In this document: one piece after another, positions 1,752-29,759 of the stretch | Layout of the letters: each line of letters begins with the position of its first letter | How positions within the stretch are numbered: the stretch's first letter is position 1 | Assembly (NCBI GenBank): GCA_026989405.1 | Contig: JALSJL010000469.1 | Location: forward strand, 1-41,517 | DNA from: Marinosulfonomonas sp. | Lineage (GTDB): Bacteria > Pseudomonadota > Alphaproteobacteria > Rhodobacterales > Rhodobacteraceae | Length of the DNA: 41,517 bases | Reading direction: 5' to 3' | The notes under the pieces: model-generated | Seen by the model: the letters and a program-made list of their open reading frames with translations, nothing else | Database searches by the model: none | Told to the model about the DNA's origin: nothing | Translations under genes and position numbers: made by a program

Positions 1752-1782
1752 TGTGATCACACTATTTGAAGGTGTGATCACA
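1752..1782. promoter_or_regulatory. pair of identical 10-bp palindromic operator-like sites upstream of sucC
   Basis: TGTGATCACA at 1752-1761 and again at 1773-1782 (11-bp spacer, 21 bp centre to centre), in the 168-bp gap before the sucC start at 1891. A third perfect copy is at 12361-12370. Confidence 0.55.
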
Positions 1783-1890
1783 AATCGTCTTTTTCCGGGC
1801 CAGTTTGTCTTTCGGGCCATGAAAACCATTCCTTCATGCCTTTCGTGTGTGCAATGGGGGTTCCAGACGCACCAGCATGAAGGCGATTCC

Positions 1891-3090
1891 ATGAATATCC
1901 ATGAGTATCAGGCAAAGGCCCTGTTGCGCGACTACGGCGCACCGGTTCTGGACGGGCGCGTGGTTCTGCGCGCCGAGGAAGCCAAGACCGCAGCCGGCCA
2001 GCTTGACGGGCCGGTCTGGGTGGTCAAGGCCCAGATCCACGCAGGCGGGCGTGGCAAGGGCCACTTCAAAGAGGCCGACGCCGGCGAAAAGGGTGGCGTG
2101 CGCATTGCCCGTTCGGTCGAGGAAGCCGCCGAAGAAGCAGCCCGCATGCTGGGTCGCACGCTTGTCACCAAGCAGACCGGCCCGAAAGGCAAACAGGTCA
2201 ACCGCGTCTACATCGAAGACGGCGCCAACATCGCGCGCGAATTCTACCTGGCCCTGCTGGTCGACCGGCAGACCAGCCGGGTGTCGTTTGTGTCCTCGAC
2301 CGAGGGCGGCATGGACATCGAAGAGGTCGCCGCCGCAACCCCCGAGAAAATCCTGAGCTTCAGCGTCGATCCGGCCACGGGCTACCAGGGTTTCCACGGC
2401 CGTCGCATCGCCTTCGCGCTCGGCCTCGAGGGCCGGCAGGTCAAACAATGCGTGGCGCTGATGGGCAAACTCTACCGGCTCTTTGTCGAGAAAGACGTCG
2501 AGATGCTGGAAATCAACCCGCTGGTGCTGACCGCCGAGGGCGACCTGCTCTGCCTCGACGCCAAGATGGGCTTTGACGACAACGCCATTTACCGCCACCC
2601 CGACATCGCCGCCCTGCGCGACGAAAGCGAAGAAGACCCGAAGGAACTGGCCGCCTCGAAATTTGACCTGAACTACATCTCGCTCGATGGCGAAATCGGC
2701 TGCATGGTCAACGGCGCCGGGCTTGCGATGGCGACCATGGACATCATCAAGCTCTACGGCTCGTCGCCCGCCAACTTTCTTGACGTGGGCGGCGGCGCCA
2801 CCAAGGAAAAAGTGACGGAGGCGTTCAAGATCATCACGTCGGACCCCAACGTCAAGGGCATCCTTGTCAACATCTTCGGCGGCATCATGCGCTGTGACGT
2901 GATCGCCGAGGGCGTCGTCGCGGCCGTCAAGGAGGTTGGCCTCAAGGTGCCGCTGGTCGTGCGCCTGGAAGGCACCAACGTCGAAAAGGGCAAGGAGATC
3001 ATTCGCAACTCGGGCCTCAACGTCATCGCGGCCGACGATCTGGCAGACGCCGCCAAAAAGATTGTCCAGGCCGTAAAGGCCGGCAAATGA
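1891..3090 (+). CDS. sucC: succinate--CoA ligase (ADP-forming) beta subunit
   Basis: Tracked ORF 1753..3090 trimmed to the Met at 1891. [19 protein letters not shown] is the canonical SucC N-terminus; ATP-grasp GGRGKG loop; 399 aa. Confidence 0.95.
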
Positions 3091-3124
3091 CCGGCACCGG
3101 CCAGACACACAAAAGAGGGCGCGC

Positions 3125-3658
3125 ATGTTTACACCGCTGAAACCGCTTGCCCTCGCCGCCCTCGCGCTGGTCCCGGCCGGCACCCGGGCGCAGGACATGT
3201 TCGCCAGCCCCGAGACCACGGCGATCTTTGCCGTGAACCTGTGCATGTTCCCGTCGACGCAAGACATTCCCGCGCAGTTGTCCGGGGCCAGGTCCAGGGT
3301 GGCCGCCACCGGCCTGCCGGTGCTGTCCCAGACTGACGAAGCCGGCATGTATGGCAACCCGGCCGGTGTTTTCGTGGTGGTGACCAGGACAATCGACAGC
3401 CTGACCTGCCTGGTGCAGATCAAGCCCCCGCGCGGCGATTTCACGGCCTACAAGATCGTCGAAGCCGGGTTTGATGCGCAGTTCCGCGGCGGCTTCCCGG
3501 GCTACAAGGACAGCATTGATGATGATCCCTCACCCCATGTCGAAGGCCATGACTGGATCGTGCGCACGCCCGAAAATGACTCTGTCATCATCACGATCGA
3601 CTGGGGGACAGAAGACGGGATCACCATCGCCGGAGTCCGAAAGAAAGAATATGACTAG
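3125..3658 (+). CDS. hypothetical secreted protein (177 aa) between sucC and sucD
   Basis: N-terminal signal peptide [24 protein letters not shown]; AGAGGG Shine-Dalgarno-like sequence just upstream. No family recognised. Confidence 0.55.
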
Positions 3659-3702
3659 CCCCAACCGGGCGACCCCGCCAAACAAATACGCAGGAGCCTG
3701 AC

Positions 3703-4584
3703 ATGGCCATTCTCATTGACGAAAATACCAAGGTGATCTGCCAGGGCTTCACCGGCAGCCAGGGCACGTTCCATTCGGAACAGGCCATCGAATACGGCAC
3801 CAGGATGGTTGGCGGCGTGACGCCGGGCAAGGGCGGGCAGGAGCACTTGGGCCTGCCGGTCTTCAATTCGGTCCACGAGGCCGTCGCGAAGACACGGGCC
3901 GACGCCTCGGTGATCTATGTGCCGCCGCCCTTTGCCGCCGACAGCATACTGGAAGCGATCGACGCCGAGGTGCCGCTGGTCGTGGCCATCACCGAAGGGA
4001 TTCCGGTGCTTGACATGATGCGCGTCAAACGTGCGCTGGAAGGGTCGAAGACCACGCTCATCGGCCCGAACTGCCCCGGCGTGATCACACCCGACGCCTG
4101 CAAGATCGGCATCATGCCGGGCCATATCCACAAGCGCGGCAGCGTCGGCGTGGTCAGCCGCTCGGGCACGCTGACCTACGAGGCGGTGAAACAGACCACC
4201 GATGTCGGACTGGGCCAGTCGACCTGCGTCGGCATCGGCGGCGACCCGATCAAGGGGACCGAGTTCATCGACGTGCTGGAATGGTTCCTTGGAGACGACG
4301 AAACCGAGAGCATCATCATGATCGGAGAAATCGGCGGCACCGCCGAGGAAGAGGCGGCGCAGTTTCTGATTGATGAGGCGAAGAAGGGCCGCAAGAAGCC
4401 GGTCGCGGGCTTCATTGCCGGTCTGACGGCCCCGCCGGGGCGGCGCATGGGCCATGCCGGTGCCATCGTCGCCGGCGGCAAGGGCGATGCCAAAAGCAAG
4501 ATCGAGGCGATGAAATCCGCCGGCATCGTGGTTGCCGAAAGCCCGGCAGCACTGGGGCAGGCGGTGCTAGAGGCGATCGGATAG
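3703..4584 (+). CDS. sucD: succinate--CoA ligase alpha subunit
   Basis: [33 protein letters not shown] canonical N-terminus; phosphohistidine loop MGHAGAIV; AGGAG RBS upstream; 293 aa. Confidence 0.95.
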
Positions 4585-4596
4585 CGGAGGCGCAGG

Positions 4597-5379
4597 GTGC
4601 CCATCTTTCGACATGACCGCGCGTTGCACTATTTCGCGCATGTGCCCAAGGCAGGGGGCCGGTCCGTCGAGGACTACCTGCGCCGCCGCTTTGGCAGGCT
4701 TTCGATGATCGATGACGGCCACCACGACCGCAACCGCCGCAGCAACTGGCTGCGCACCACCCCGCAGCACGCAGCGGTGGCCGACATCGAAGTGCTGTTT
4801 CCCACGGAATGGTTCGCCTCGATATTTGCCGTCGTGCGCCACCCGATCGCCCGGCTGGTGTCCGCCTTCAACTTCCAATCCACGGTCTGGCGCCAGATTC
4901 CGGTCGGAATGAGCTTTGCCGAATGGTTCGACGAATACCGCGCGCTGTCGCGGGTCTACCCCTATTACTACGACAACCATCTGCGCCCGCAGGTCGATTT
5001 CGTCCCCGAAGGGGCGCGAATATTCCGCCTCGAAGACGGCATGGACGGGCTGACAGAATGGCTTGACGAGGTGACGGGTTCGACGGCACCCGACGTGAAG
5101 ATCCCCCATGTCAACGCCTCGCGCCCGGTGCAAAGCGCCTATTATGAAACCGAACAACTGCCGCGGGATGCGCTCGGTGCCATAGCCGAATTCTACGCCG
5201 CGGATTTCGAACGCTTCGGCTACGCCCCCGATCCCGGGCGCGCATTCACCCTTTACATGCCCACCGGCCGTTACCCCACCGCCGAGGAACGTCGCCGCCT
5301 GCGCGGCCGCTCGCTCTGGGGCCGGCGGTTGTGGCGCCAGCTGGTGCAGCGCACCGGCCGACCGGTATTCATGTTCTGA
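4597..5379 (+). CDS. sulfotransferase family 2 protein (PAPS-dependent type)
   Basis: 5'-PSB-like HVPKAGGRSV near the N-terminus and 3'-PB-like VVRHPIARLVSAF motif. Starts 12 nt after the sucD stop, so probably co-transcribed. Confidence 0.7.
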   Translation: MPIFRHDRALHYFAHVPKAGGRSVEDYLRRRFGRLSMIDDGHHDRNRRSNWLRTTPQHAAVADIEVLFPTEWFASIFAVVRHPIARLVSAFNFQSTVWRQIPVGMSFAEWFDEYRALSRVYPYYYDNHLRPQVDFVPEGARIFRLEDGMDGLTEWLDEVTGSTAPDVKIPHVNASRPVQSAYYETEQLPRDALGAIAEFYAADFERFGYAPDPGRAFTLYMPTGRYPTAEERRRLRGRSLWGRRLWRQLVQRTGRPVFMF

Positions 5380-5466
5380 TGGCGGGAAAGATGATGACAA
5401 ATGAGACTCACCGGGCCAGCTTCGCACCGGAAGCACCCGACGCAGCCAGCACCCGGAGGTGACACG

Positions 5467-8430
5467 ATGACCGAACACTCCTCGAATAACCAGTTTCGCG
5501 CATCATCCTTCCTGCAAGGACAGAATGCCGCGTATATCGAGCAGCTCTACGCCCGTTACGCGAGCGACCCGTCGGCGGTGGACGAAAGCTGGCGCGCATA
5601 TTTCCGCGAGCTTGGCGACAACCCGGTCGACGCCAGACGCGAGGCCGCCGGCGCTTCCTGGGCCCGCACCGACTGGCCCCCTGCCCCGGCCGATGACCTC
5701 ACGGCCGCGCTCGATGGTCAATGGCCGCCCGAGCCGCACAAGGAGACCGAAGCGGCCGAACGGAAAATTCGCGCCAAGGCCGCCGAGCAAGGGGTCGAGC
5801 TGAACGACGAAGCGGTGCGTCGCGCGGTTCTCGACAGCATCCGCGCCCTGATGCTGATCCGGGCCTACCGTATCCGGGGCCATCTGGCCGCCGATCTCGA
5901 TCCACTGGGCATGCGCAAGGCCAGCGACCACCCCGAGCTTGACCCGGCGAACTACGGCTTCACCGAGGCCGACATGGACCGGCCGATCTTCATCGACAAC
6001 GTGCTGGGGCTGGAAATTGCCACCATGCGTCAGATCGTCGAGATCGTGAAACGCACCTATTGTGGCACCTTCGCGCTGCAGTACATGCATATTTCGGACC
6101 CCGAGCAGTCGGCCTGGCTGAAAGAACGGATCGAGGGCTACGGCAAGGAAATCCAGTTTACCCGCGAGGGCCGCAAGGCCATCCTGAAGAAACTGGTGGA
6201 AGCCGAGGGGTTCGAAAAATTCCTGCATGTCAAGTATATGGGCACCAAGCGGTTCGGCCTTGACGGTGCCGAAAGCCTGATCCCGGCGATGGAGCAGATC
6301 ATCAAGCGCGGTGGCGCGCTGGGGGTGAAGGACATCATCATCGGCATGCCGCACCGCGGCCGGCTTTCGGTGCTGGCCAATGTGATGGGCAAGCCGTATC
6401 GCGCCATTTTCAATGAATTTCAGGGCGGCAGCTTCAAACCCGAAGACGTTGATGGCTCGGGCGATGTGAAATACCATCTTGGCGCGTCGTCCGATCGCGA
6501 GTTTGACGGCAACAAGGTGCACCTGTCGCTGACGGCCAATCCCAGCCACCTCGAAGCAGTCAACCCGGTCGTTCTGGGCAAGGCGCGCGCCAAGCAGGAA
6601 CAGCAGAACGACACCGACCGCCATCACGTGCTGCCCCTGTTGCTGCATGGCGATGCGGCCTTTGCCGGGCAGGGCGTGGTTGCCGAATGCTTCGGCCTGT
6701 CGGGCCTGTCGGGCCACCGCACCGGCGGCACGATGCATATCGTCGTGAACAACCAGATCGGTTTCACCACGGCGCCGCATTTTTCACGCTCGTCGCCCTA
6801 CCCCACCGACATTGCGCTGATGGTCGAAGCGCCCATCTTCCATGTCAATGGCGACGATCCCGAGGCCGTGGTGCATGCCGCCAAGGTCGCCACCGAGTTT
6901 CGCCAGAAGTTCCACAAGGACGTGGTGATCGACATTTTCTGCTACCGCCGCTTCGGCCACAACGAGGGCGACGAGCCGATGTTCACCAATCCGCTGATGT
7001 ACAAGCGGATCAAGAAACACAAGACAACCCTGCAGATCTACACCGAGCGCCTGGTCAAGGACGGCCTGATCCCGGAAGGCGAGATCGAGGACATGAAGGC
7101 CGCGTTTCAGGCCTTCCTGAACGAGGAATTCGAGGCCGGGAAGGACTACAAGCCCAACAAGGCCGACTGGCTTGACGGGCGCTGGTCGCATCTCGACAAA
7201 CATGGCGAGGAATACCAACGCGGCCAGACCGCCGTCCCGGCCGAAACGCTCGAGGAAATCGGTCGCGCGCTCACAACCCTGCCCGACGGCTTTCCCGTCC
7301 ACAAGACAGTGGCCCGGATGCTCGCGACCAAGGCCCGCATGTTCGAAACCGGCCAAGGTTTTGACTGGGCCACCGCCGAGGCCATCGCCTTCGGGTCGCT
7401 CTTGCTGGAAAATTACCCGGTTCGCCTTTCCGGCCAGGACAGCACCCGCGGCACTTTCAGTCACCGCCACTCGGCGATCATCAACCAGGACACCGAGGAA
7501 CGCTATTACCCGCTCAATCACATCCGCGACGGCCAGGCCCGCTATGAGGTGATCGACTCGATGCTCTCGGAATATGCCGTTCTCGGCTTCGAATATGGCT
7601 ACAGCCTTGCCGAGCCCAATGCGCTGGTCCTCTGGGAAGCCCAGTTCGGTGATTTCGCCAACGGCGCCCAGATCATGTTCGATCAGTTCATCAGTTCGGG
7701 CGAACGCAAGTGGCTGCGCATGTCGGGCCTGGTGTGCCTGCTGCCGCACGGCTATGAGGGACAGGGGCCGGAACACTCGTCGGCCCGCCTCGAACGGTTT
7801 CTCATGATGAGCGCCGAGGACAACTGGATCGTCGCCAACTGCACCACCCCGGCCAACTATTTTCACATCCTGCGCCGGCAGATGCACCGCAGCTATCGCA
7901 AGCCGCTGATCATGATGACCCCGAAATCGCTGCTGCGCCACAAGATGGCGGTGTCGGCGGCCGAAGACTTCGTGACCGGCTCCAGCTTTCACCGGGTGCT
8001 CTGGGATGATGCGCAAAAGGGCAATTCCGACACCGCCCTGGTGGCGGACGACAAGATCAGGCGCGTCGTCATGTGTTCGGGCAAGGTCTACTATGACCTG
8101 CTGGCCGAACGCGACAAGCGTGAACTGGATGACGTCTACATCCTGCGTGTCGAACAGTTCTATCCATTCCCGGCGCTGTCCATGGTGAAAGAACTCGACC
8201 GCTTCAAGCAGGCCGAAATGGTCTGGTGCCAGGAAGAACCCAAGAACCAGGGCGCCTGGGCCTTCATGGAGCCCAACATCGAATGGGTTCTCAGCCGGAT
8301 CGAGGCCACGCACACCCGCCCGGTATATGCCGGACGCCCCGCCGCAGCTTCGCCCGCCACCGGGCTGGGGTCGCAGCACAAAGCCCAACAAGAAGCGCTG
8401 GTCGACGCCGCGCTGACCATTGAAGGATAA
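5467..8430 (+). CDS. sucA: 2-oxoglutarate dehydrogenase E1 component
   Basis: Tracked ORF 5401..8430 trimmed to the Met at 5467 (GGAGGTGA RBS 5-12 nt upstream). MTEHSSNNQFRASSFLQGQNAAYIEQLYARYA is a typical SucA N-terminus; length about 988 aa; HGDAAFAGQG ThDP-region motif. Confidence 0.95.
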   Translation: MTEHSSNNQFRASSFLQGQNAAYIEQLYARYASDPSAVDESWRAYFRELGDNPVDARREAAGASWARTDWPPAPADDLTAALDGQWPPEPHKETEAAERKIRAKAAEQGVELNDEAVRRAVLDSIRALMLIRAYRIRGHLAADLDPLGMRKASDHPELDPANYGFTEADMDRPIFIDNVLGLEIATMRQIVEIVKRTYCGTFALQYMHISDPEQSAWLKERIEGYGKEIQFTREGRKAILKKLVEAEGFEKFLHVKYMGTKRFGLDGAESLIPAMEQIIKRGGALGVKDIIIGMPHRGRLSVLANVMGKPYRAIFNEFQGGSFKPEDVDGSGDVKYHLGASSDREFDGNKVHLSLTANPSHLEAVNPVVLGKARAKQEQQNDTDRHHVLPLLLHGDAAFAGQGVVAECFGLSGLSGHRTGGTMHIVVNNQIGFTTAPHFSRSSPYPTDIALMVEAPIFHVNGDDPEAVVHAAKVATEFRQKFHKDVVIDIFCYRRFGHNEGDEPMFTNPLMYKRIKKHKTTLQIYTERLVKDGLIPEGEIEDMKAAFQAFLNEEFEAGKDYKPNKADWLDGRWSHLDKHGEEYQRGQTAVPAETLEEIGRALTTLPDGFPVHKTVARMLATKARMFETGQGFDWATAEAIAFGSLLLENYPVRLSGQDSTRGTFSHRHSAIINQDTEERYYPLNHIRDGQARYEVIDSMLSEYAVLGFEYGYSLAEPNALVLWEAQFGDFANGAQIMFDQFISSGERKWLRMSGLVCLLPHGYEGQGPEHSSARLERFLMMSAEDNWIVANCTTPANYFHILRRQMHRSYRKPLIMMTPKSLLRHKMAVSAAEDFVTGSSFHRVLWDDAQKGNSDTALVADDKIRRVVMCSGKVYYDLLAERDKRELDDVYILRVEQFYPFPALSMVKELDRFKQAEMVWCQEEPKNQGAWAFMEPNIEWVLSRIEATHTRPVYAGRPAAASPATGLGSQHKAQQEALVDAALTIEG

Positions 8431-8436
8431 GCCGCC

Positions 8437-9654
8437 ATGCCAACTGAAGTCCGCGTGCCCACCCTGGGCGAAAGCGTTACCGAGGCCACCGTCGCCACCT
8501 GGTTCAAAAAACCGGGCGACGCAGTGGCCGTGGATGAAATGCTGTGTGAGCTGGAAACAGACAAGGTCACCGTCGAGGTGCCGTCACCGGTGGCCGGCAA
8601 GCTCAGCGAAATCGTGGCGCCCGAAGGCGAAACCGTCGGCGTCGACGCGCTGCTGGCCGTGATCGAAGAGGGCGAAGGCGCAGCGGCGGCCCCGGCGGCA
8701 GAAAAGCCGGCGCAGGCCCCCGTGCCCGACCAGCGGGAACCGGCGGCCCGCGATATCGAACATGCCCCGGCTGCGAAAAAGGCGATGGCCGAAGCGGGCC
8801 TCACACCCGATCAGGTGCAGGGCACGGGCAAGGATGGCCGCATCATGAAGGAAGACGTGGCCCGCGCGACGCAAGGCCCCTCTCACAGCCCGGCCCCGGC
8901 CCCGGCCGCCGCGCCGGCTGCCGGCGTGGCTGCTCCGGTGGCTGCAGACGATGCCGGGCGCGAAGAGCGGGTCAAGATGACCCGCCTGCGCCAGACAATC
9001 GCCCGCCGCCTGAAAGAAGCTCAGAACACCGCCGCGATCCTGACCACCTACAACGAAGTCGACATGTCGGCGATCATGGACCTGCGCAACACCTACAAGG
9101 AACAGTTTCTCAAGAAGCACGGCGTCAAGCTCGGCTTCATGTCCTTTTTCACCAAGGCCTGCGTGCATGCGCTTCAGGAAGTGCCCGAGGTCAATGCCGA
9201 AATTGACGGCAATGATGTGGTCTACAAGAAATACGTCCATATGGGCATTGCGGTCGGCACCCCCAACGGGCTGGTTGTGCCGGTCATCCGCAACGCCGAT
9301 GCCATGTCATTTGCCGAAATCGAAAAGGCGATCAATGAAAAGGGCCGGCGCGCCCGGGACGGCAAGCTGTCGATGGAAGAGATGATGGGCGGCACCTTCA
9401 CCATTTCCAACGGCGGGGTCTACGGCTCGCTGATGTCGTCGCCCATCCTGAACCCGCCGCAGTCGGGCATTCTGGGCATGCACAAGATCCAGGACCGCCC
9501 GGTCGCCGTGAACGGCGAAGTGGTGATCCGCCCGATGATGTATCTTGCGCTCAGCTACGACCACCGTATCGTTGACGGCAAGGGCGCCGTGACCTTCCTT
9601 GTGCGCGTCAAGGAGGCGCTGGAAGACCCCCGGCGCCTGCTGATGGACCTTTGA
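8437..9654 (+). CDS. sucB: dihydrolipoyllysine-residue succinyltransferase (OGDH E2)
   Basis: Lipoyl domain with ELETDKV lipoyl-lysine motif, Ala/Pro-rich linkers, E3-binding segment, and C-terminal catalytic DHRIVDG. Confidence 0.95.
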
Positions 9655-9675
9655 ACACGCCAGAAAGGATACGCC

Positions 9676-10065
9676 ATGTTTTTCGATGAGCTTTCTCTTC
9701 TTGCCCTCTATGGCCTTGTCGTGGCCTTCACGATCCTGCTGCAGACCACCGGCGTCGTGGGCCAGTTGGGCATGGGATACCTGTTGTCGGCGCGCGATGA
9801 GCCGCGCACTCTCACCGGCATCACCGCGCGCCTTGAACGGGCGCTGTCAAACTCGATCGTGGCCATGGCCCTGTTCGCCCCGGCGGTGCTGATCCTTGCC
9901 GCGGGTGACAAGTTCACGCCGTCCACCCTGCAAGCGGCCCAAGTGTTCGTGGTTGCCCGGCTGATCTACATCCCGGCCTACGCTTTCGCCATCACCGGGT
10001 TGCGCACCCTGGCCTGGCTGGTCGGCTTCGCGGCCACCATCACGCTCTACTTCCTGGGCCTGTGA
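9676..10065 (+). CDS. MAPEG family membrane protein
   Basis: 129 aa with about four hydrophobic helices. Its size and position between sucB and lpdA match the MAPEG gene commonly found there in alphaproteobacteria. Confidence 0.65.
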   Translation: MFFDELSLLALYGLVVAFTILLQTTGVVGQLGMGYLLSARDEPRTLTGITARLERALSNSIVAMALFAPAVLILAAGDKFTPSTLQAAQVFVVARLIYIPAYAFAITGLRTLAWLVGFAATITLYFLGL

Positions 10066-10094
10066 TGGCGACGGCAAGACGACATACGACTTGC

Positions 10095-10133
10095 CATATG
10101 CAGTTCACATGGGACTCATATGGAATGCACATG
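10095..10133. repeat. tandem 17-bp CATATG-N5-CACATG units upstream of lpdA
   Basis: CATATGcagttCACATG (10095-10111) and CATATGgaatgCACATG (10117-10133): 14/17 identical, 22-bp period, ending 25 nt before the lpdA ATG. Confidence 0.45.
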
Positions 10134-10158
10134 CCCATTTTCACCTTTGGAGAGCCCC

Positions 10159-11547
10159 ATGGCAAACTATGACGTGATCATCATCGGGGCCGGTCCGGGC
10201 GGCTATGTCTGCGCCATCCGGTGCGCCCAACTGGGCCTGAAGACCGCCGTGATCGAAGGGCGCGAAACGCTCGGCGGCACCTGCCTGAACGTCGGCTGCA
10301 TCCCCTCCAAGGCCCTGCTGCATGCAACCCATTGCCTGCATGATGCCGAAACCAATTTTGCCAGGATGGGCCTCAAGGGGAAATCGCCCTCGGTCGACTG
10401 GAAACAGATGCAGGTCTACAAGGATGACGTTGTCGGACAGAACACCAAGGGCATCGAATTCCTGTTCAAAAAGAACAAGATAGACTGGATTAAGGGCTGG
10501 GGGTCGATCCCTGCGCCTGGCAAGGTCAAGGTGGGCGAAGAGCTGCACGAAGCCCGCCATATCGTGATCGCCACCGGGTCTCAAAGCGCCACGATCCCCG
10601 GTGTCGAGATTGATGAAGACCGCGTGATCTCATCGACAGGCGCACTGTCTCTGGCCAAGCCCCCCAAGTCTCTTCTGGTCATCGGTGCGGGCGTCATCGG
10701 GCTGGAAATGGGCTCGGTCTATGCCCGTCTCGGCGCCCGTGTGACAGTTGTCGAATATCTCGATGCCATCACGCCGGGCATGGACAGGGACGTGCAGAAA
10801 ACCCTGCAAAGAATATTGAAAAAACAAGGGCTTGAGTTCATTCTGGGGGCGGCTGTCCAAGGGGTGACAAGCACAAGGACCAAGACCAGAACCACCTATC
10901 GGCTGAAAAAGGACGGCTCGGAACATGTGCTGGACGCCGATGTCGTCCTGGTTTCGACCGGGCGCCGCCCCTTTACCGACGGGCTTGGTCTCGACGGGAT
11001 CGGCGTTCAGCTGACAGAACGCGGCCAGATAGCCACCGACAGCACCTGGGCGACCACGGTTCCGGGCATTTACGCAATCGGCGACGCGATCGAGGGCCCG
11101 ATGCTCGCCCACAAGGCCGAAGATGAAGGCATGGCCGTGGCCGAGGTGCTGGCCGGCAAAAAAGGCCATGTAAATTATGGGGTTATCCCAAGCGTCATCT
11201 ATACGACCCCGGAAGTTGCCAGCGTCGGCGAAACCGAACAGAGCCTCAAGGAGGCGGGCCGTCCCTACAAGGTCGGCAAGTTTTCCTACATGGGCAACGC
11301 CCGCGCCAAGGCCGTGTTCCAGGGCGAGGGCTTCGTGAAGATCATCGCCGACAAGCAAACCGACCGCATCCTGGGCGCCCACCTCATCGGCCCCGCCGCA
11401 GGGGAGCTCATCCACGAAATCTGCGTGGCCATGGAATTCGGCGCTTCGGCCGAAGACATCGCCCTCACCTGCCACGCCCACCCCACCTGGTCCGAAGCCG
11501 TCCGCGAGGCCGCCCTGGCCTGCGGCGATGGCGCCATTCATGCGTGA
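10159..11547 (+). CDS. lpdA: dihydrolipoyl dehydrogenase (E3)
   Basis: Tracked ORF 10120..11547 trimmed to the Met at 10159 (GGAGAG RBS). [19 protein letters not shown] fold; redox-active [13 protein letters not shown] disulfide; C-terminal HAHPTWSEA. Confidence 0.95.
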
Positions 11548-11702: not shown

Positions 11703-12353
11703 TCAGACCACCAGCATCCGCAACCCTTGGGTCACATCCGTGCGGACCGCCAGCCGCAACCCCGGCTCATCCCCGGCCCTGAGCGCGGCGACAATCGCCC
11801 TGTGGTGCTGCGGGACTTCAGTGCGCTGCAGACGCCCGTACAGGTGGCGCATGGTCGGACCCAACTGCAGCCAGACGGTCTCTGCAATGGCCAGCATCGC
11901 CGGCGCCTGAGCGCGCAGGTAAAGTGTGCGGTGAAATTCCAGGTTGGTGCGGATATAGCCGATTGCATCGCCCTTTGCGATCACCTGGGCCAGCACGCCA
12001 TTGATGGCCTGCAGACGATCAATCAATGCAATATGCGCCCTGGGAAGCGCGCGGCTTGCCAGTTCCGGCTCCAGCAACGCACGGACAGCGGCCAGCTCCT
12101 CGATCCGCTCGTTGCTCAGCTCCGGCGTTGCCACACGCCCCGAAGCGGTCATGGTCAGCGCCCCTTCGGCAACCAGGCGGCGCATGGCCTCGCGCGCCGG
12201 TGTCATCGAAACGTCAAATTGCCTGGCCACCCCGCGCAGCGTCAAGGCGTGTCCCGGCGGCAATTCGCCATGCATGATGCGCAACCGCAACTTTCGGTAA
12301 ATCCGGTCATGGGCAACACTTGTGGGTTCGGCAGGGCGCGGCTGGATCAACAT
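11703..12353 (-). CDS. GntR family transcriptional regulator (FadR/FCD-type C-terminal domain)
   Basis: N-terminal winged HTH (LTLRGVARQFDVSMTPAREAMRRLVAEGAL) and an all-helical C-terminal domain with His residues typical of FCD; 216 aa. Confidence 0.85.
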   Translation of the reverse strand: MLIQPRPAEPTSVAHDRIYRKLRLRIMHGELPPGHALTLRGVARQFDVSMTPAREAMRRLVAEGALTMTASGRVATPELSNERIEELAAVRALLEPELASRALPRAHIALIDRLQAINGVLAQVIAKGDAIGYIRTNLEFHRTLYLRAQAPAMLAIAETVWLQLGPTMRHLYGRLQRTEVPQHHRAIVAALRAGDEPGLRLAVRTDVTQGLRMLVV

Positions 12354-12360
12354 GCGCCAT

Positions 12361-12370
12361 TGTGATCACA
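12361..12370. promoter_or_regulatory. third copy of the TGTGATCACA palindrome, 7 nt upstream of the GntR start codon
   Basis: Exact match to the two sites upstream of sucC. It lies in the 31-bp gap between the M48 peptidase stop (12385) and the GntR ATG (12353) and fits the generic GntR-family GT-Nx-AC operator form. Confidence 0.5.
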
Positions 12371-12384
12371 GCAGGACGTTCCAG

Positions 12385-13080
12385 TCAAATGGCGAAACGA
12401 TAGGCATGCAGCAAGGCACCATTTTCGCGCAGCCATTTTCGCGGTGCGCGGTAATCCGGGCAGAGGCCTTCGACCAGATCCCAGAATGCGGGTGAATGAT
12501 TCATCTCGCACAAATGCGCGACCTCATGTGCCGCAACATAGTCAAGAACCTCCGGCGGGGCCATGATCAGTCGCCAGGAAAACATCAGGTTCCCGTCGGA
12601 CGAACAGGACCCCCAGCGCGATCTGGTGTCGCGCAAGGTCAACTTCGCATGACGGCGCCCCAGACGCGCGCCATGCAGGTCACTGGCCTCGGCAAGCTGT
12701 TGGCGCGCCCGGGTCTTCATGAACGCGGCCACTTTCGCCCCGGCCCGCTCCGATGCGCCGGGCACCAGGATCGAGCCGCCCTCAAACCGCGCCACACGCC
12801 CGTCTGCCGCAATGATTGGCACGACTTCACCGCGAAAATGGATCATGCCCCCGATCTCGACCGCAATCCTTTCATGTTGCCTGTCCAGTTGTCGCCTGAT
12901 CCAGTCTTCTTTTTCCTGGGCAAATTTCAGGGCCTCGCGGCTGCGGGTCCAGCGCGGCATCGATATCGTGACACCGCCATCCAGCCGTGACACGCGCAAC
13001 GACAGCCGGCGCGAACCTGCGTTGCGTCTGAGCTTGATAATGATCGGAGGGTCACCCTCCAGTCGCAACTGCCCCATCAC
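12385..13080 (-). CDS. M48-like / DUF45 (YgjP-like) zinc metallopeptidase-fold protein
   Basis: HEVAHLCEMNHS (HExxH plus downstream His) near the C-terminus; 231 aa, the typical size of the YgjP/DUF45 family. Confidence 0.8.
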   Translation of the reverse strand: MMGQLRLEGDPPIIIKLRRNAGSRRLSLRVSRLDGGVTISMPRWTRSREALKFAQEKEDWIRRQLDRQHERIAVEIGGMIHFRGEVVPIIAADGRVARFEGGSILVPGASERAGAKVAAFMKTRARQQLAEASDLHGARLGRRHAKLTLRDTRSRWGSCSSDGNLMFSWRLIMAPPEVLDYVAAHEVAHLCEMNHSPAFWDLVEGLCPDYRAPRKWLRENGALLHAYRFAI

Positions 13081-13649: not shown

Positions 13650-13725
<76 letters not shown>

Positions 13726-17225: not shown

Positions 17226-18694
17226 TTGTAACGCCCTGGATCATGCGGATCCGGCCCGAAACCCCTGACCCGCCGCACTTGTCCTTCCTGGATCGTGTCC
17301 AGCGGCCGGACGTCCTCCATATGTCCGCCCAGGTCCCGATAGTCGGCCAGCCGCATGGTAAACTCGATCGGCGCGACAAGGGCCGGTGTCGGCACATACC
17401 CGAACGCGTTGGTGGGCATTTCGGTAACATCAGCCATGACCGTGATACCGCCCCCCGGCCAGACATAGGCCTGCGCCCCGCCACAGGAAACATAGGTCAG
17501 CGCATCGCGCACCGAACGGGTCAGCCGCACCGGGTTTTCCGTGACCCCGGCCCGCAACGAGCCGCCGGCGCCGCCCATGAACAAGACCGAGCAAAACGAA
17601 GGTTCGCAGTTTTCGGCAATGCGCTCGACTGACGCCTTCAAGGCCGTCGGTATCGGGGCCGGCTGCGGAACCAGATCGGCGTCGAGTTCGAAATAGGCAA
17701 ATTGCTCGCCGGTTGTCGAAACCATCAGCAAACGAAGCCCGGGCCATGCGTATTCGGGGTCTGCGTCCTTGAGGACGGCCAACGGATCCTGCACATTCGT
17801 GCCGCCCCAGCCGGTGCCCGGCTCTGCCACCTGAAAATAGCGGCCCGGTGTTGACCGGCGCCCGTTCACCCGGATGCCCGTGCGTTTCACGCCAAGCAGC
17901 TTGCCCGCCTGATGTTCAGACAGAACGCCGGTAATGTGATCATCGACGACGATGACCTCATCCGCATGATCAACCCATTGGGCCGCAAACATGCCGATGG
18001 CGGCCGACCCGCAGCCCACGCGCATCAGTTTTTCCGCGGTCCCTTCGATTATCGGCGCCTTTCCGGCCTGCACCACGACCTGCGCGCCTTCGTCGATGTC
18101 CATCGTCACCGCGTCCCGGTTGCACAGCCGCAGCACGGCATCACAGGTCACCCGCCCCTCTCGCTTGGAGCCGCCGGTCAGATGCTCGACCCCACCCAGA
18201 GACAGCATGCGCGATCCGTATTCGCTGGTCATGACATGACCGATTGCTTCCCCGTCCACGCGCACCACGGCGCGTTCCTGTCCGATATGGCGGTCGGTGT
18301 CGATCTTCACCTTGACGCCGCAGTAGGAAAATATCCCCTCGGTTACGACGGTCACCATGTCGATGCCGTCGATTTCCTGACTGACGATGAAAGGTGCCGG
18401 TTTGTAGTCAGGGTAGGTTGTGCCCGCGCCAATGGCGGTCACGAACTGGCGACGGCTGTGCAAAAGGTCGCCATCCCAGTCGGCATCGCCGTTTTCGCCC
18501 AGAAACGGCACGGACCTGACACCTTTCCCGGCGCTGGTTTCCAGGATCGTGAGGGGGTCCAGGCGGACCAGCCGGCCTTCCTGGTTTGCATAGCGGTCGC
18601 ACGCCCCGGCCCGACCTTCGGCGATGAAGCACAGAACGGGGCACGCATCGCAACGGATCTTGTCTGCGGAAGCTGTGCGGGATTTCCCGGTCAT
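17207..18694 (-). CDS. 6-hydroxynicotinate reductase-like iron-sulfur flavoprotein
   Basis: Tracked ORF 17207..18769 trimmed to the Met at 18694 (ATGA overlap with the upstream hydroxylase stop). N-terminal Cys cluster CDACPVLCFIAEGRAGAC (CxxCxxxCx9C). Flanked by an XDH-family hydroxylase and an enamidase-like amidohydrolase, as in nicotinate clusters. Confidence 0.6.
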   Translation of the reverse strand: MTGKSRTASADKIRCDACPVLCFIAEGRAGACDRYANQEGRLVRLDPLTILETSAGKGVRSVPFLGENGDADWDGDLLHSRRQFVTAIGAGTTYPDYKPAPFIVSQEIDGIDMVTVVTEGIFSYCGVKVKIDTDRHIGQERAVVRVDGEAIGHVMTSEYGSRMLSLGGVEHLTGGSKREGRVTCDAVLRLCNRDAVTMDIDEGAQVVVQAGKAPIIEGTAEKLMRVGCGSAAIGMFAAQWVDHADEVIVVDDHITGVLSEHQAGKLLGVKRTGIRVNGRRSTPGRYFQVAEPGTGWGGTNVQDPLAVLKDADPEYAWPGLRLLMVSTTGEQFAYFELDADLVPQPAPIPTALKASVERIAENCEPSFCSVLFMGGAGGSLRAGVTENPVRLTRSVRDALTYVSCGGAQAYVWPGGGITVMADVTEMPTNAFGYVPTPALVAPIEFTMRLADYRDLGGHMEDVRPLDTIQEGQVRRVRGFGPDPHDPGRYKWDGKP

Positions 18695-21426
18695 GTTGCG
18701 CCCCCGCGATCGATGGCCGCCTTCAGCCGCGCCGGCGTGACTGGCAGCCGGGTGACACGCACACCGCATGCGGCCCTGATTGCATTCAAGATCGCCGGAG
18801 CCGTGGGCACCAGGGCATGTTCGCCCAGCCCCTTGGCCCCGTATGGCCCATGCGGGTCCGGCTCTTCCACAATCAGCGTTTCAATCGGAGGAATATCGCC
18901 GATTGTCGGGATCAGGTAGTCATGCAGGTTTTCGGTCTTGCCGGGAACATATTCTTCCATCAGAGCCATGCCCAGGCCTTGCGCAATCCCGCCCTGGATC
19001 TGGCCTTCGACCAACAGGGGGTTGATGGCACGGCCGACATCATGGGCCGCCACCATGCGCAGGACGCGGGTCGTGCCCAGCGCCATGTCCACCTCGACGA
19101 CGGCCAACTGCGCGGCGTAGCCAAACTGGGCGTAGGGCTCGCCCTGCCCGTTTTCATCCAGCGGTCTTGTGGGCGGGTCGTAGGTTTCTGCGGCCCGGAA
19201 GACATAGCCTTCGCGGTCGGCATCAAGGCGGGCCAGGTCAATTCGATGGCTCTTGCCGTCGTCGCGCACATGGATGCTTCCGGCGCGCAGGTCAATCACA
19301 CTGTCCGGCGCTGCATTCACCTTGCCAAGTATGTCACGCCGCAGCGCCTCGCCGGTCAGGCGCGCTGCATTTCCGCTGACAAATGTCTGACGTGATGCCG
19401 ATGTCTTGCCGGCATCCGGCGTGATGTCGGTATCGGCCCCCAGGATCCTCATCCTGGAAATCGGCACGCCAAGCGCTTCAGAGAAAATCTGCGCAATAAC
19501 GGTGTTGGAGCCTTGCCCGATATCGACCGCTCCCTGATGGAGCACCAGCGAACCATCGGCGAGGATGCCGGCCTTGATCGTCGAGGGGTTGGGAAGTGAC
19601 GTGTTTCCGCAACCATACCAGCCACAGGCCAGGCCGACTCCCCGTCGCACCCCAGGCGTCGCGCCGCCGGCGTTGACAGCTTTCGCCGCCGCCCGTTCGC
19701 GCTGCCAGAACGGGCGCAGAGCCCTGAGGCAGGCGCCGATACCGACGCCGCGCTCAAACACCTGTCCGCAGACCGTGGGCATGCCATTTTCCAGGGCGTT
19801 TTTCAGCCGGAACTCCAGCGGGTCCAGGCCCAGTTTTTCGGCCAGGTCATCAAACAGGCTTTCTTGCGCCACGGCCGCCTGTGGCACCCCGAAGCCACGA
19901 AACGCACCCGATGGCGGCGCGTTGGTGTGCACGGCCTTCGCCGATGCCCGGTAAGCGCCAACCCGATAGGGGCCCGACGCATGAACCGGCACACGGTTGG
20001 CAACCGTCGGGCCCCATGATGCGTAGGCCCCGGTATTGAATTCCGCTTTGAAATCAAAAGCCTGGATGGCTCCGTCGGCGTTTGCTCCGATCGTCAGACG
20101 CATGATCGCCGGATGCCGTTTGGTTGTCGATTTCATCGACTCCGACCGCGTATAGGCCAGCCTTGCCGGGCGGCCTGTCGCCAGCGCTGCCAGCGCCAGA
20201 TACGGTTGAACCGACAGATCGAGCTTGGCTCCGAACCCCCCGCCAACAGCGGTCGGCACGATGCGGATCCGGTCTGGCTCCATTGCCAGAATACCGGCCA
20301 GGGCTTCCTGGTCCATGGCGGGGGCTTGCGTGCAGGCGTGCAGCTCCAGCCGGCCATCAACCATCTGCGCAAACCCGGCTTCGGGCTCGATATAGGCATG
20401 CTCCACGAATGACGTCTGAAATTCACCGGACACAGTCACGTCCGCCTCGCGCAGGGCGGCTTTCGGATCACCCTGCAAGACAAAACCCTCGCACATCAGG
20501 TTGCCGGGGCGGTCGGCGTGAAGGGGTGTTGCATCGCGCGCCTGTGCCGACGCCAGGTCTTCGACACCCGGCAAGCGGGAAAAGCGGATCGGCAGGTCAT
20601 CAAGATCGAGCGCCCGCAAGGCCGGCGGCTCGCCAATGACCGACGCAACGGCCTCGCCTCTGAACCGGCAGAGTTTTTCTGCAAAAACCGGCTGGTCAAG
20701 AAAGCCCGGAATGACGCCGAACCGATTGCACCCCGGCACGTCCGCAGCCGTCTGGACGGCAACGATCCCCGGATGCGCTGCCAGAAAGGCGGTCGTATCG
20801 CCGATCTCGAAGCTCGCCGCGGCATGGGGAGACCGGACCACCCGAATTTCCAGAGTGCCCGGCGGCGCGATGTCGTCACCGAATTTCTCGCGGCCCTCGA
20901 CTTTTGCCAGACCATCGGTTTTTCGGATCGCCGCCCCGACGCCCCCCTCGCGCAGGCGTTCTTCAGGCGCGCGCACCGCCAGCACGGCCGCAATGATCTT
21001 GCGGTATCCCGTGCACCTGCACAAGACACCGCCAAGCGCATCCATCACCGCTTTTTCGTCGGGCTCCGGGCACTCGCGCAACAGCGCCGTCGCGCAGACC
21101 AGCATGCCCGGCGTGCACACCCCACATTGAGCGGCGCCAAAATCCTGAAAGCTCTCGCAGAGCCCGGCGGCAATCGGGTCACCTCCGGCAAGCCCCGACA
21201 CGGTTTCAACCAGGCGACCGGCCGCCTGGTGGACCGGCATGAGGCAGGCGCAAATCGGTTTGCCATCCACCAGAACGGTGCAGGCGCCACAGTCTCCGGC
21301 ATCGCATCCGACCTTCACATCGCGGCCATCAAGCCGTTCGCGCAGCGCATGAGACAGCCGTTCGCCGGGATCGGCCGTCACAGTGACCGGCCGGCCGTTC
21401 AGGTTGAACGCCACCATATCAGTCAT
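18691..21426 (-). CDS. xanthine dehydrogenase-family molybdenum hydroxylase, fused 2x[2Fe-2S] + MoCo subunits (candidate nicotinate/N-heterocycle hydroxylase)
   Basis: N-terminus has CDAGDCGACTV, CGVCTPGM and CRCTGY ferredoxin motifs. The C-terminal ~750 aa is an aldehyde oxidase/XDH a/b-hammerhead plus MoCo-binding region (VGGGFGAKL). 911 aa. Confidence 0.85.
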   Translation of the reverse strand: MTDMVAFNLNGRPVTVTADPGERLSHALRERLDGRDVKVGCDAGDCGACTVLVDGKPICACLMPVHQAAGRLVETVSGLAGGDPIAAGLCESFQDFGAAQCGVCTPGMLVCATALLRECPEPDEKAVMDALGGVLCRCTGYRKIIAAVLAVRAPEERLREGGVGAAIRKTDGLAKVEGREKFGDDIAPPGTLEIRVVRSPHAAASFEIGDTTAFLAAHPGIVAVQTAADVPGCNRFGVIPGFLDQPVFAEKLCRFRGEAVASVIGEPPALRALDLDDLPIRFSRLPGVEDLASAQARDATPLHADRPGNLMCEGFVLQGDPKAALREADVTVSGEFQTSFVEHAYIEPEAGFAQMVDGRLELHACTQAPAMDQEALAGILAMEPDRIRIVPTAVGGGFGAKLDLSVQPYLALAALATGRPARLAYTRSESMKSTTKRHPAIMRLTIGANADGAIQAFDFKAEFNTGAYASWGPTVANRVPVHASGPYRVGAYRASAKAVHTNAPPSGAFRGFGVPQAAVAQESLFDDLAEKLGLDPLEFRLKNALENGMPTVCGQVFERGVGIGACLRALRPFWQRERAAAKAVNAGGATPGVRRGVGLACGWYGCGNTSLPNPSTIKAGILADGSLVLHQGAVDIGQGSNTVIAQIFSEALGVPISRMRILGADTDITPDAGKTSASRQTFVSGNAARLTGEALRRDILGKVNAAPDSVIDLRAGSIHVRDDGKSHRIDLARLDADREGYVFRAAETYDPPTRPLDENGQGEPYAQFGYAAQLAVVEVDMALGTTRVLRMVAAHDVGRAINPLLVEGQIQGGIAQGLGMALMEEYVPGKTENLHDYLIPTIGDIPPIETLIVEEPDPHGPYGAKGLGEHALVPTAPAILNAIRAACGVRVTRLPVTPARLKAAIDRGGAT

Positions 21427-23607: not shown

Positions 23608-23763
23608 CCAGATCGGCACCCGACACCAAGCGCCCCTGTTGTGCGGCCGACCTGCCCCGAACCTTCCGGGACTTCGAATTTTCTGGACAATAATTTTGCT
23701 GGCACTCAATCTAGTGGAAAACGACCGGGAGCTGGTCGACACTCAATACCAGGGAGACGAAAC

Positions 23764-25050
23764 ATGGCTCAACAGAAAACCGATGGCCTGATCGCACCGA
23801 CCCGCCGGGCGGTGCTCAAGGGCGTGGCGGCGACAGGCCTGGCAACGGCCATGCCCGGCCACCTGTATGGCGCAACCGACGAGCCGATCCGCGTCGGATT
23901 TCAGGTGCACCGCACCGGCATCGGCGCATCCTACGGCCGCTGGTATGACCGCACGACCACCGCCGCGGCCCGCGTCATCAACGAAGCCGGCGGGATCAAC
24001 GGCAGACCCCTCGAGATCATTGCCGAAGACGACGGCACCGACCCGAAACGCGGGGCGGAAGTCCTTGAGAAATTCGCAAACCAGCACAATTGCGATATTG
24101 CCTACGGCACATTGTTCAGCCATGTGGTCATCGGATCGGCCCCGCGCGCGGCCGAGTTGAAACTGCCCTATTTCGTGGTCTCTGAAGGCCACCATGTCGC
24201 GTCCGGCATGCTCAACCGCTACACGCTGCAACCGGGTATCACCGACGTCAAGAGCCAGGTCCAGGCCATGGCCCCGTTTGTCGCGGCCAACCTTGGCAAG
24301 AAGGTCACGATGATCTACCCGGATTTCGCTTTCGGCCACAACCACCGGGATTTCTTCGGTGACGCGATCGAAAAGGAAGGCGGCCAGGTTGTCGCGAAAA
24401 TCGCCATTCCGCCAACCGAAACATCTTTCACCCGGTATTTCCCGCAGATCCCGCGCGAGACCGAGGTGATCTATCATGTGATGGTCGGTCCGGCCGTTCT
24501 GACCTTTGTGAAGGAGATGGGCGAATTTTTCGGCCCGTCGAGCCCGGAAATTTTCGGGTTCATCGATTCACTCGAGGCCGTCGACCTGGCAACGCCGGGG
24601 CTGGAATTTCTGGACGGGTCCTTCTTCTGGGAAGGCCACCCGCGCTATGCACAGCCGGACCAGACCGAATATGACAAATTCTACCGTGAGCAGGTCGGCG
24701 TCGATGAAAATGGCGCCTCGGTCGATGACCCCAGGGACGTTTCCACCTACTCGCACATGTTCGCGTGCTGGGAAACGCTGCATGTGATCAAGGATGGCAT
24801 GGAAGCGGCGGGCTACAAGGGGCCGCAGGACCGGGCGGCGCTGATCGAAGCGGTCGAGGCGATGACCGACATGCCGGAAAGCCGGGCCCATCCACAGGGC
24901 CCCAAGATATTCAACGGCAAGACCCACCAGGTTTTCGGCGTGCAGTATATCAGCCAGGTCAACGGCGGCCGGCTTGACGTGAAACATGTCACGTCGATCG
25001 AAGACGGGCTGTATCCGGACGAAGTGGACTACACCACCCAGCCGCTCTGA
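23764..25050 (+). CDS. ABC transporter periplasmic substrate-binding protein (Leu/Ile/Val-binding, HAAT family) with Tat-type signal
   Basis: Tracked ORF 23641..25050 trimmed to the Met at 23764 (AGGGAGA RBS). N-terminal PTRRAVLKGVAATGLATAMPG fits the S/T-R-R-x-F-L-K twin-arginine motif. Followed by LivHMGF-type genes. Confidence 0.75.
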   Translation: MAQQKTDGLIAPTRRAVLKGVAATGLATAMPGHLYGATDEPIRVGFQVHRTGIGASYGRWYDRTTTAAARVINEAGGINGRPLEIIAEDDGTDPKRGAEVLEKFANQHNCDIAYGTLFSHVVIGSAPRAAELKLPYFVVSEGHHVASGMLNRYTLQPGITDVKSQVQAMAPFVAANLGKKVTMIYPDFAFGHNHRDFFGDAIEKEGGQVVAKIAIPPTETSFTRYFPQIPRETEVIYHVMVGPAVLTFVKEMGEFFGPSSPEIFGFIDSLEAVDLATPGLEFLDGSFFWEGHPRYAQPDQTEYDKFYREQVGVDENGASVDDPRDVSTYSHMFACWETLHVIKDGMEAAGYKGPQDRAALIEAVEAMTDMPESRAHPQGPKIFNGKTHQVFGVQYISQVNGGRLDVKHVTSIEDGLYPDEVDYTTQPL

Positions 25051-25060
25051 GACCCGAGTC

Positions 25061-25090
25061 GCATGCCCTGCCCGCTGGGGTCGGGCATGC
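25061..25090 (+). other. intercistronic stem-loop between the binding-protein and permease genes
   Basis: GCATGCCC (25061-25068) / GGGCATGC (25083-25090), an 8-bp stem with a 14-nt loop, 10 nt after the SBP stop. Such hairpins often set SBP:permease stoichiometry. Confidence 0.4.
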
Positions 25091-25124
25091 ATCGCAGCCA
25101 CCGTTCCAACCACATCAGGACGCT

Positions 25125-26051
25125 ATGGATTTCGGCCCGCACCTACTCCTTGCCATGCTCGAAGGGCTTGTGCAGGCCTCGGTCCTGACGCTGACGGCGC
25201 TGGGGCTGTCACTGGTTTTCGGTGTGATGCGGGTCGTGAATGTCGCCCATGGCGAATTTTTCATGCTGGGTGCGGTGCTGGCATGGTGGATCACCTTTCT
25301 GGTTGGCGGCCCGCCGGCGCTGGCCTTCATCGTGGCACTTCTGGTTGCGCCACTTCTGGTGGGAACAATTGCCGCTGCCGCCGACTGGCTGGTCTTGCGC
25401 CGGATCGACTATGATCCCGAGCGCACGATCGTTGCCACGATCGGGCTCTTGTATATTATCCAACAGCTCACGCTGATGTCCTATGGGCCGGATGCGCGCC
25501 CGGTTGCGCCGCCGTTCAACACGCGTCTGGCTCTGCCCTGGTTCGAATTCGGCAGCGGGGGGGTGCAGATCTACTGGCCCTGGGGCCTTTCGATCACAAG
25601 TTACAAGCTGTTCGTCATATTCGCAGCCCTTCTGACCGGGCTTGCTCTCTGGGCGGTCATGGCGCGGTCCCGCCTCGGGCTGATCTTGCGGGCAACCCAG
25701 CAAGACCGGGAAACCGCGCAGGCATTCGGCGTGCCGGTCGAGCGTGTCTATGCCCTGGTTTTCGGCCTTGGCGCGGCCCTTGCGGCCCTGGGCGCGACAC
25801 TGGTCGTGCCCATTCAGCAGGCGCATTACCTGATGGGAGGCGATCCGCTGCTGCTCAGCTTCATCGTGGTGATTATCGGCGGGCTGGGCTCGTTGCGCGG
25901 CACTGTTGTCGCGGCCATTCTCATCGGCATGAGCGACGGCATCATCTCGGTTTTCTTTTCCCCCACGCTGGCCAAGATGCTGGCCACGCTTCTTGTGGCC
26001 ATGGTGCTGGTCTTTCGCCCGCAGGGTCTGTTCGGAAGCAAGCCGGCATGA
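25125..26051 (+). CDS. branched-chain amino acid-type ABC transporter permease (LivH-like)
   Basis: 308-aa polytopic membrane protein typical of LivH-type permeases. ATGA overlap with the next permease gene. Confidence 0.85.
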   Translation: MDFGPHLLLAMLEGLVQASVLTLTALGLSLVFGVMRVVNVAHGEFFMLGAVLAWWITFLVGGPPALAFIVALLVAPLLVGTIAAAADWLVLRRIDYDPERTIVATIGLLYIIQQLTLMSYGPDARPVAPPFNTRLALPWFEFGSGGVQIYWPWGLSITSYKLFVIFAALLTGLALWAVMARSRLGLILRATQQDRETAQAFGVPVERVYALVFGLGAALAALGATLVVPIQQAHYLMGGDPLLLSFIVVIIGGLGSLRGTVVAAILIGMSDGIISVFFSPTLAKMLATLLVAMVLVFRPQGLFGSKPA

Positions 26052-26983: not shown

Positions 26984-27687
26984 GCTTGTTGAGCACCCAT
27001 GCCCTGAGCCGCAACTATGGCGGGTTGCAGGCCGTGAAAAACGTCAGCCTTGACATATCGCAGGGCGAGGTCCGCGCGCTGATCGGGCCAAATGGCGCCG
27101 GAAAGACCACCCTGGTTTCAATGCTGTGCGGACGCATCCCGGCGACCTCTGGCCAGGTGGTGTTCGAGGGCCGCGACGTGACAACCCTGCCCGCTCACCG
27201 ACGCATAGCACTGGGCATGGCCTATACGTTCCAGATCACGTCCGTTTTTGCCGAACTGAGCGTGAGTGAAAACGTGGAACTGGCCGTTCAGCGGCATATC
27301 GCCGAGCGCCAGAAGATCACGGCACAGGTTGACCGGACGCTGGAACGGGTCGGGCTGGGCCGGATGGCAGACAGGACCGCAGGCGACCTTGCCTATGGCC
27401 ACCAGAGGTTGCTGGAAATTGCGATGGGTCTGGGACAGACTCCAAAACTGTTGATCCTCGATGAGCCGACGCAGGGACTGTCCGACAGCGAGATCGAAGA
27501 CTTTGTTGCGCTCATCCGCTCGGTTTCGGAAAAATCAACTGTCCTGCTCATCGAGCACAACATCAATGTTGTCATGGCGCTTGCCGACAAGATCACCGTT
27601 CTGAATTTCGGAGAGATCATCGCCGAGGGCACACCCGGGGAAATCCGTGCAAACGAGGCGGTGCAGACCGCCTATCTGGGGGGCTGA
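26971..27687 (+). CDS. ABC transporter ATP-binding protein (LivG-like)
   Basis: Tracked ORF 26530..27687 trimmed to the Met at 26971 (a GTG at 26980 is also possible). Walker A GPNGAGKTT, signature-like LAYGHQRLLEIA, Walker B LLILDEP. Confidence 0.9.
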   Translation: MAAVSLLSTHALSRNYGGLQAVKNVSLDISQGEVRALIGPNGAGKTTLVSMLCGRIPATSGQVVFEGRDVTTLPAHRRIALGMAYTFQITSVFAELSVSENVELAVQRHIAERQKITAQVDRTLERVGLGRMADRTAGDLAYGHQRLLEIAMGLGQTPKLLILDEPTQGLSDSEIEDFVALIRSVSEKSTVLLIEHNINVVMALADKITVLNFGEIIAEGTPGEIRANEAVQTAYLGG

Positions 27688-29747: not shown

Positions 29748-29759
29748 TTTTCCGGCTCC

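Follow-up and report, generated by a model that had tools for sequence, protein, structure and literature searches.

Among GntR-family regulators, PdhR of Escherichia coli (FadR subfamily) represses the pdhR-aceEF-lpd operon until it is released by pyruvate, and recognizes operators of the ATTGGT-N3-ACCAAT type. The GntR-family factor AkgR of Rhodobacter sphaeroides (RSP_0981) was studied by Imam, Noguera, and Donohue (mBio 2015, 6:e02461-14; PMC4323418), whose ChIP-seq experiments found it bound upstream of sucCDAB at GTGATCACGGGCTCGAAGGGTGTGATCAC (57.8-fold enrichment) and upstream of sdh at GTGATCACAGGCCCGCATCTTGTGATCAC (84.4-fold enrichment), the sole operons of that species that were both AkgR-bound and AkgR-dependent. 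AkgR is an activator of both operons in R. sphaeroides, its effect being strongest during growth on alpha-ketoglutarate, a condition under which its deletion lowered the sucA and sucC transcripts approximately twofold (PMC4323418). The functional motif was proposed to be GTGATCAC-N13-GTGATCAC, with a lone GTGATCAC constituting a half-site, and a comparison of 12 species predicted the motif before sucCDAB and/or sdh in other Rhodobacterales (PMC4323418). The akgR gene itself is among the predicted targets in some species (Fig. S5 legend), none of the R. sphaeroides ChIP-seq sites of Table 2 is assigned to akgR, and in the R. sphaeroides genome akgR is found two locus tags beyond sdhB, with lpdA followed by other genes (PMC4323418).

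The present study examined a stretch of 41,517 nt, hereafter the window, whose host is an uncultured bacterium of the Paracoccaceae (Rhodobacterales) and in which a pair of identical palindromes precedes sucC and a third copy precedes a GntR-family gene. We consider it highly probable (roughly 0.9) that the pair is an AkgR site, that the regulator acting on it is most likely the product of the GntR-family gene at 11703-12353, and that the third box belongs to that gene's own promoter.

Paired boxes and the suc operon

The 10-mer TGTGATCACA occurs in the window as three exact copies, at 1752-1761, 1773-1782, and 12361-12370. The first two, to which no strand is assigned, are AkgR-type boxes: box 1 (1752..1761), the promoter-distal one, holds the core GTGATCAC at 1753-1760, and box 2 (1773..1782), the promoter-proximal one, holds it at 1774-1781. 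The 10-mers are separated by CTATTTGAAGG; in 8-mer terms, the pair reads GTGATCAC-N13-GTGATCAC, with the spacer at 1761-1773 and a centre-to-centre distance of 21 bp. The pair sits in a 168-nt gap (1723-1890) between a gene for a 410-aa protein (490-1722) and sucC, and 109 nt lead from the end of box 2 to the sucC ATG (1891). A sequence-only reading made earlier had reported the perfect copies, the separator, and the sucC start, all of which were recovered by exact matching or read directly in the sequence. Its remark that the surroundings are locally AT-richer is borne out by a GC fraction of 0.44-0.46 around the boxes vs 0.62-0.68 in the flanking genes, and all three copies are intergenic as it had described, lying in the 1723-1890 gap and in a 31-nt gap before the GntR gene. 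It had also estimated that a specific 10-mer should appear far less than once, and the expectation came to 0.04 copies against the three observed, with three or more present in none of 100 dinucleotide-preserving shuffles.

The 3′ end of mdh opens the window on the + strand, before the 490-1722 gene. The latter, also on the + strand, has no match in Pfam or NCBIfam; five relatives have a homologue of its product (36-55% identity) at the corresponding place, and most others lack one. Downstream of the boxes, the presumptive target operon runs from sucC to lpdA (1891..11547, +; Pfam assignments), and comprises sucC (1891-3090), a 177-aa ORF without a family (3125-3658), sucD (3703-4584), a sulfotransferase-family gene (4597-5379), sucA (5401-8430), sucB (8437-9654), a MAPEG gene (9676-10065), and lpdA (10120-11547), all on the + strand and in a gene order that is the same in relatives. 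The gaps of the suc operon hold other inserts in relatives, including DUF805 and cupin genes and small ORFs.

Compared with the AkgR site before R. sphaeroides sucCDAB, the window has the identical GTGATCAC in two copies, the same 13-bp spacer length, and the same placement between mdh and sucC; the spacer letters differ, being ACTATTTGAAGGT in the window vs GGGCTCGAAGGGT in R. sphaeroides. Since the pair agrees with the published motif in core, copy number, spacer, and position, the finding is already known: judged by their sequence, the paired boxes before sucC are the published AkgR binding-site motif, and this identification is correct without being new. Each 8-10 bp palindrome would be expected to take one dimer, and the 21-bp spacing would set two dimers on the same helix face, where they may bind cooperatively. 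By extension from R. sphaeroides, the bound regulator would raise transcription of sucCDAB-lpdA and of sdh. The sequence-only reading had taken the pair for a phased operator of a dimeric regulator controlling sucCDAB-lpdA, which fits the AkgR motif as to phasing and target; the notion of a classical repressor operator does not carry over, as AkgR is an activator of suc and sdh in R. sphaeroides. For a box-mutant design, we propose GTCATGAC as the altered core standing in for GTGATCAC.

No second double site was found in the window when two mismatches and spacers of 9-17 nt were allowed and when one-mismatch boxes were also searched. A fourth exact GTGATCAC lies within sucD at 4081-4088, where it coincides with the in-frame codons GTG-ATC-ACA, the V-I-T of the conserved NCPGVITP. 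This copy is kept in only 18 of 42 relatives, the others having synonymous variants, and is therefore a by-product of coding. Its presence within coding sequence could be held to favor a reading of all the boxes as chance occurrences or dispersed-repeat copies without a regulatory role, to which we assign a negligible probability: the V-I-T codons explain the coding copy, the number of 10-mers far exceeds that in the shuffles, and the position and spacing of the pair are conserved in approximately 100 Rhodobacterales genomes (see below), conservation data by which such a reading is already refuted.

Two other kinds of binding sites were considered and rejected. CRP-type sites read TGTGA-N6-TCACA, and their half-site letters TGTGA and TCACA are shared by the window boxes; the half-sites in the window, however, abut without a spacer, a geometry that is consequently unfit for a CRP/FNR dimer, and the regulator shown to bind is of the GntR family. 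The CceR site, (T/C)GTT-N6-AAC(A/T), is absent near sucC, and its two matches elsewhere in the window are at chance level.

The pair could also act at the RNA level, with a 12-bp hairpin between box 1 and box 2 terminating or attenuating transcription that enters sucC from mdh and the 490-1722 gene. A terminator-like scan does flag 1752-1782, and a folding energy of −21.1 kcal/mol was obtained for the predicted hairpin (z-score −4.2). Two copies of the same palindrome are bound to pair, though, whatever their function, so that a hairpin is expected here in any case. The stem itself does not resemble an intrinsic terminator, with G-C in only 5 of its 12 pairs and an 8-nt gap between the stem and the T-run, which would adjoin in a terminator, and no Rfam family matched at 1752-1782. 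Further against an RNA-level role, the same pair precedes sdhC; in at least eight relatives, a pair stands in a divergent intergenic region beside a GT2-like gene, where there is nothing to terminate; the single box conserved at the GntR promoter is unable to form a hairpin; and protein binding to the motif was shown by ChIP-seq in R. sphaeroides (PMC4323418). We hence regard termination or attenuation as very unlikely and retain the AkgR site as the preferred reading.

The promoter that an AkgR-type activator would serve is less distinct. A consensus scan of 1650-1950 detected no sigma-70 promoter, and hexamers resembling −10 and −35 elements gave no clear signal of enrichment after box 2 across 55 sucC leaders and 47 sdhC leaders. 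At 1821..1830 (+), 40 nt after box 2, the window holds AAAACCATTC, a possible UP/−35 region of the sucC promoter whose role is uncertain, and 16 of the 55 sucC leaders have an AAAACC(G/C)TTT-like element at this fixed offset, 39-40 nt past box 2. This element may be part of the sucC promoter, or it may be the site of another factor. Were it the promoter, the boxes would be situated well upstream of the −35 region, as is the case with an upstream-bound activator, although this is speculation.

The double site across the Rhodobacterales

The motif was surveyed with a 29-bp pattern in one genome per species, yielding at least 120 loci with at least 128 double sites. Among the matches listed, at least 48 double sites are located within 260 nt upstream of sucC and at least 49 within 260 nt upstream of sdhC, all of them in Rhodobacterales, the sdhC of the motif loci being a 127-aa protein with the Pfam domain Sdh_cyt. 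One further listed double site falls at a locus end beside mdh, and the other approximately 30 come mostly from Streptomyces, Planctomycetota, and further unrelated taxa; these look like chance matches, resembling V-I-T coding runs and being without the T and A flanks. No Cereibacter locus is among the motif matches listed. The Rhodobacterales consensus, which is the same for sucC and sdhC, is ttTGTGATCACa-N(about 11)-tGTGATCACAAA, box 1 being ttTGTGATCACa and box 2 tGTGATCACAAA. In most of the 55 sucC leaders, 105-114 nt separate the motif from the ATG; the mode, 109 nt, is the value of the window.

Given that the survey loci were chosen by the motif itself, loci found through the GntR protein were examined too. 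Seven of the loci retrieved in this manner include 150 nt or more of sequence upstream of sucC, and each of them has an exact pair 105-110 nt ahead of the ATG. The closest relatives of the GntR protein (75-88% identity) are all Paracoccaceae (Rhodobacterales), with names including Rhodovulum and Tranquillimonas, and the motif stands before sucC or sdhC only in Rhodobacterales among the matches listed; the protein and the motif thus have the same taxonomic range.

This survey widens the published 12-species comparison to approximately 100 genomes of Rhodobacterales plus 80 metagenome contigs; in these, the double box is essentially confined to sucC and sdhC among the matches listed. Conservation upstream of sucC orthologues, which the sequence-only reading had named as a check on its interpretation, is evident both in the listed survey sites and in the seven loci that were retrieved independently of the motif, and the random scatter that it had named as counter-evidence is not the pattern seen among the listed Rhodobacterales sites.

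The GntR/FCD gene and its promoter

The GntR-family gene (11703..12353, −) is convergent with lpdA, from which it is separated by 155 nt, and is preceded by a YgjP-like gene (12385-13080, −). Its product, a FadR-subfamily protein, combines a Pfam GntR domain (residues 16-68) with an FCD domain (residues 86-205), the winged helix plus C-terminal effector domain that characterizes the group to which AkgR belongs. Many metagenome contigs, as well as Rhodovulum and Tranquillimonas, share this arrangement of the GntR gene and lpdA. A block composed of a FYDLN_acid gene, the YgjP-like gene, and the GntR gene is kept in relatives.

The nearest solved structure is that of McbR/YncC of E. coli (PDB 4p9f; residues 21-211 aligned, E 2e-21), which shares the architecture of a GntR HTH plus FCD. 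The window protein scores 89 bits against NCBIfam PRK11414, as compared with an equivalog cut-off of 225, and McbR/YncC governs an unrelated regulon (biofilm and colanic acid genes). PdhR is alike in its FadR-subfamily membership and, given the role predicted for the window protein, in its regulation of 2-oxoacid dehydrogenase genes, its autoregulation, and its GT-N-AC-type palindrome, but is a pyruvate-released repressor with an operator other than the GTGATCAC boxes of the window. Membership of the window protein in the PdhR family was rejected, as only the HTH domain shows similarity (E 3.5e-6), at a level far below the family cut-off.

The third box (12361..12370, exact TGTGATCACA, no strand assigned) is a single AkgR-type box that is presumably autoregulatory, and it lies in a 31-nt gap between the stop of the YgjP-like gene (12385) and the start of the GntR gene (12353). 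A promoter scan identified a sigma-70-like −35/−10 pair around it (12388-12359), consisting of a −35-like hexamer TTGACT at 12383..12388 (−), which includes the TGA stop of the YgjP-like gene, and a −10-like hexamer CACAAT at 12359..12364 (−), which shares the final four bases of the box. Read on the − strand, the layout is TTGACT-18 nt-CACAAT-GGCGC-ATG, with the ATG of the GntR gene beginning 6 nt downstream of CACAAT.

The promoters of GntR orthologues were compared at 82 loci, drawn from three NCBI genomes, metagenome contigs, and the window itself, and amounted to 79 distinct sequences. One exact GTGATCAC box is present in 64 of the 79 (81%), our proxy for recognition of this 8-mer by the GntR protein, and it keeps its place between the −35 element and the ATG. 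Most often, the promoter is arranged as TTGACN-12 nt-GTGATCAC-8 or 9 nt-ATG: 46 of the 64 boxed promoters have 8-9 nt from box to ATG, and relatives keep TTGAC 12-13 nt ahead of the box, including those whose GntR gene has no adjoining YgjP-like gene. A Shine-Dalgarno-like (SD-like) tetramer precedes the ATG in only 4 of the 64 boxed GntR promoters vs 48 of 55 for sucC.

Most orthologues of the GntR gene have GTGATCAC in the promoter, which in comparative genomics is the customary ground for taking a factor to recognize a motif, and AkgR is a GntR protein that binds this 8-mer; the window gene is accordingly a likely akgR orthologue, and we strongly infer from sequence that it corresponds to RSP_0981. 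It shares with the R. sphaeroides system the order Rhodobacterales and the location of a GntR-family gene in a TCA-gene neighborhood, close to a target operon. The regulator gene nevertheless adjoins lpdA and has its own box in the window, whereas it is just beyond sdhB in R. sphaeroides. None of sdhA, sdhB, or sdhC was found within 10 kb of the GntR gene at any of 83 orthologue loci, and no GntR/FCD ORF was detected by profile search and tblastn in the motif loci listed (at least 120); the gene layout hence differs from that of R. sphaeroides.

It is with this difference in mind, akgR being near sdh and not beside lpdA in R. sphaeroides, that one might suppose the boxes to be bound by another regulator, with AkgR a GntR paralogue encoded elsewhere and the box in the neighboring gene's promoter incidental; that we infer the orthology with RSP_0981 from sequence leaves this reading some room. 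We consider it unlikely. In 81% of the orthologues, the promoter holds the exact 8-mer at a constant position, which argues against an incidental box, and the protein and the motif match in taxonomic range. Moreover, AkgR, itself of the GntR family, binds the same 8-mer, and akgR figures among the predicted targets in some species (PMC4323418). The preferred reading, in which the GntR/FCD protein of 11703-12353 is most likely the AkgR-type regulator of the paired boxes, is the one retained here.

In the window, the ATG follows the −10-like hexamer so closely that a leaderless mRNA is predicted, and the GntR gene is probably transcribed as such. As the third box lies over the −10 hexamer, a dimer bound there should block the −10 region, and the GntR protein would be expected to repress its own, probably leaderless, transcript; the conserved geometry points to negative autoregulation. 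The third copy, which the sequence-only reading had noted as intergenic, is no further member of the regulon but a site within the regulator gene's own promoter. In other respects, the interpretation given there is supported in substance by the sequence comparisons, with the neighboring GntR protein as the regulator.

We lean, by a small degree, toward a dual mode of action in which two phased upstream dimers activate suc and sdh and a lone dimer over the −10 region represses the regulator's own leaderless gene, an arrangement that would hold in approximately 80% of Paracoccaceae and apparently not in R. sphaeroides. About a fifth of the GntR orthologue promoters are without the box, and two loci of this kind, among those reaching sucC, still carry the double site at sucC; autoregulation therefore seems dispensable, as is apparently the case in R. 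sphaeroides. The geometry of the akgR promoter is undescribed in the published work, in which akgR is only a predicted target in some species (PMC4323418). The added value of the present analysis is a conserved autoregulatory and apparently leaderless promoter of the regulator, which is a small refinement and no discovery. For annotation of the contig, sucCDAB-lpdA can be entered as under predicted AkgR-type control, with the neighboring GntR gene as the likely regulator.

Other features of the window

The remainder of the window holds two tRNA genes on the + strand, at 13650-13722 and 38300-38386 (Rfam RF00005; 63.6 and 59.8 bits, respectively). It also contains two sets of molybdopterin-dependent dehydrogenase genes of the xanthine/CO-dehydrogenase type, accompanied by genes for CoxE-like VWA proteins and AAA ATPases (18691-21426, 28965-32129, and 33314-35517, all on the − strand), and a branched-chain amino-acid-type ABC transporter (23641-28382) is located between these sets.
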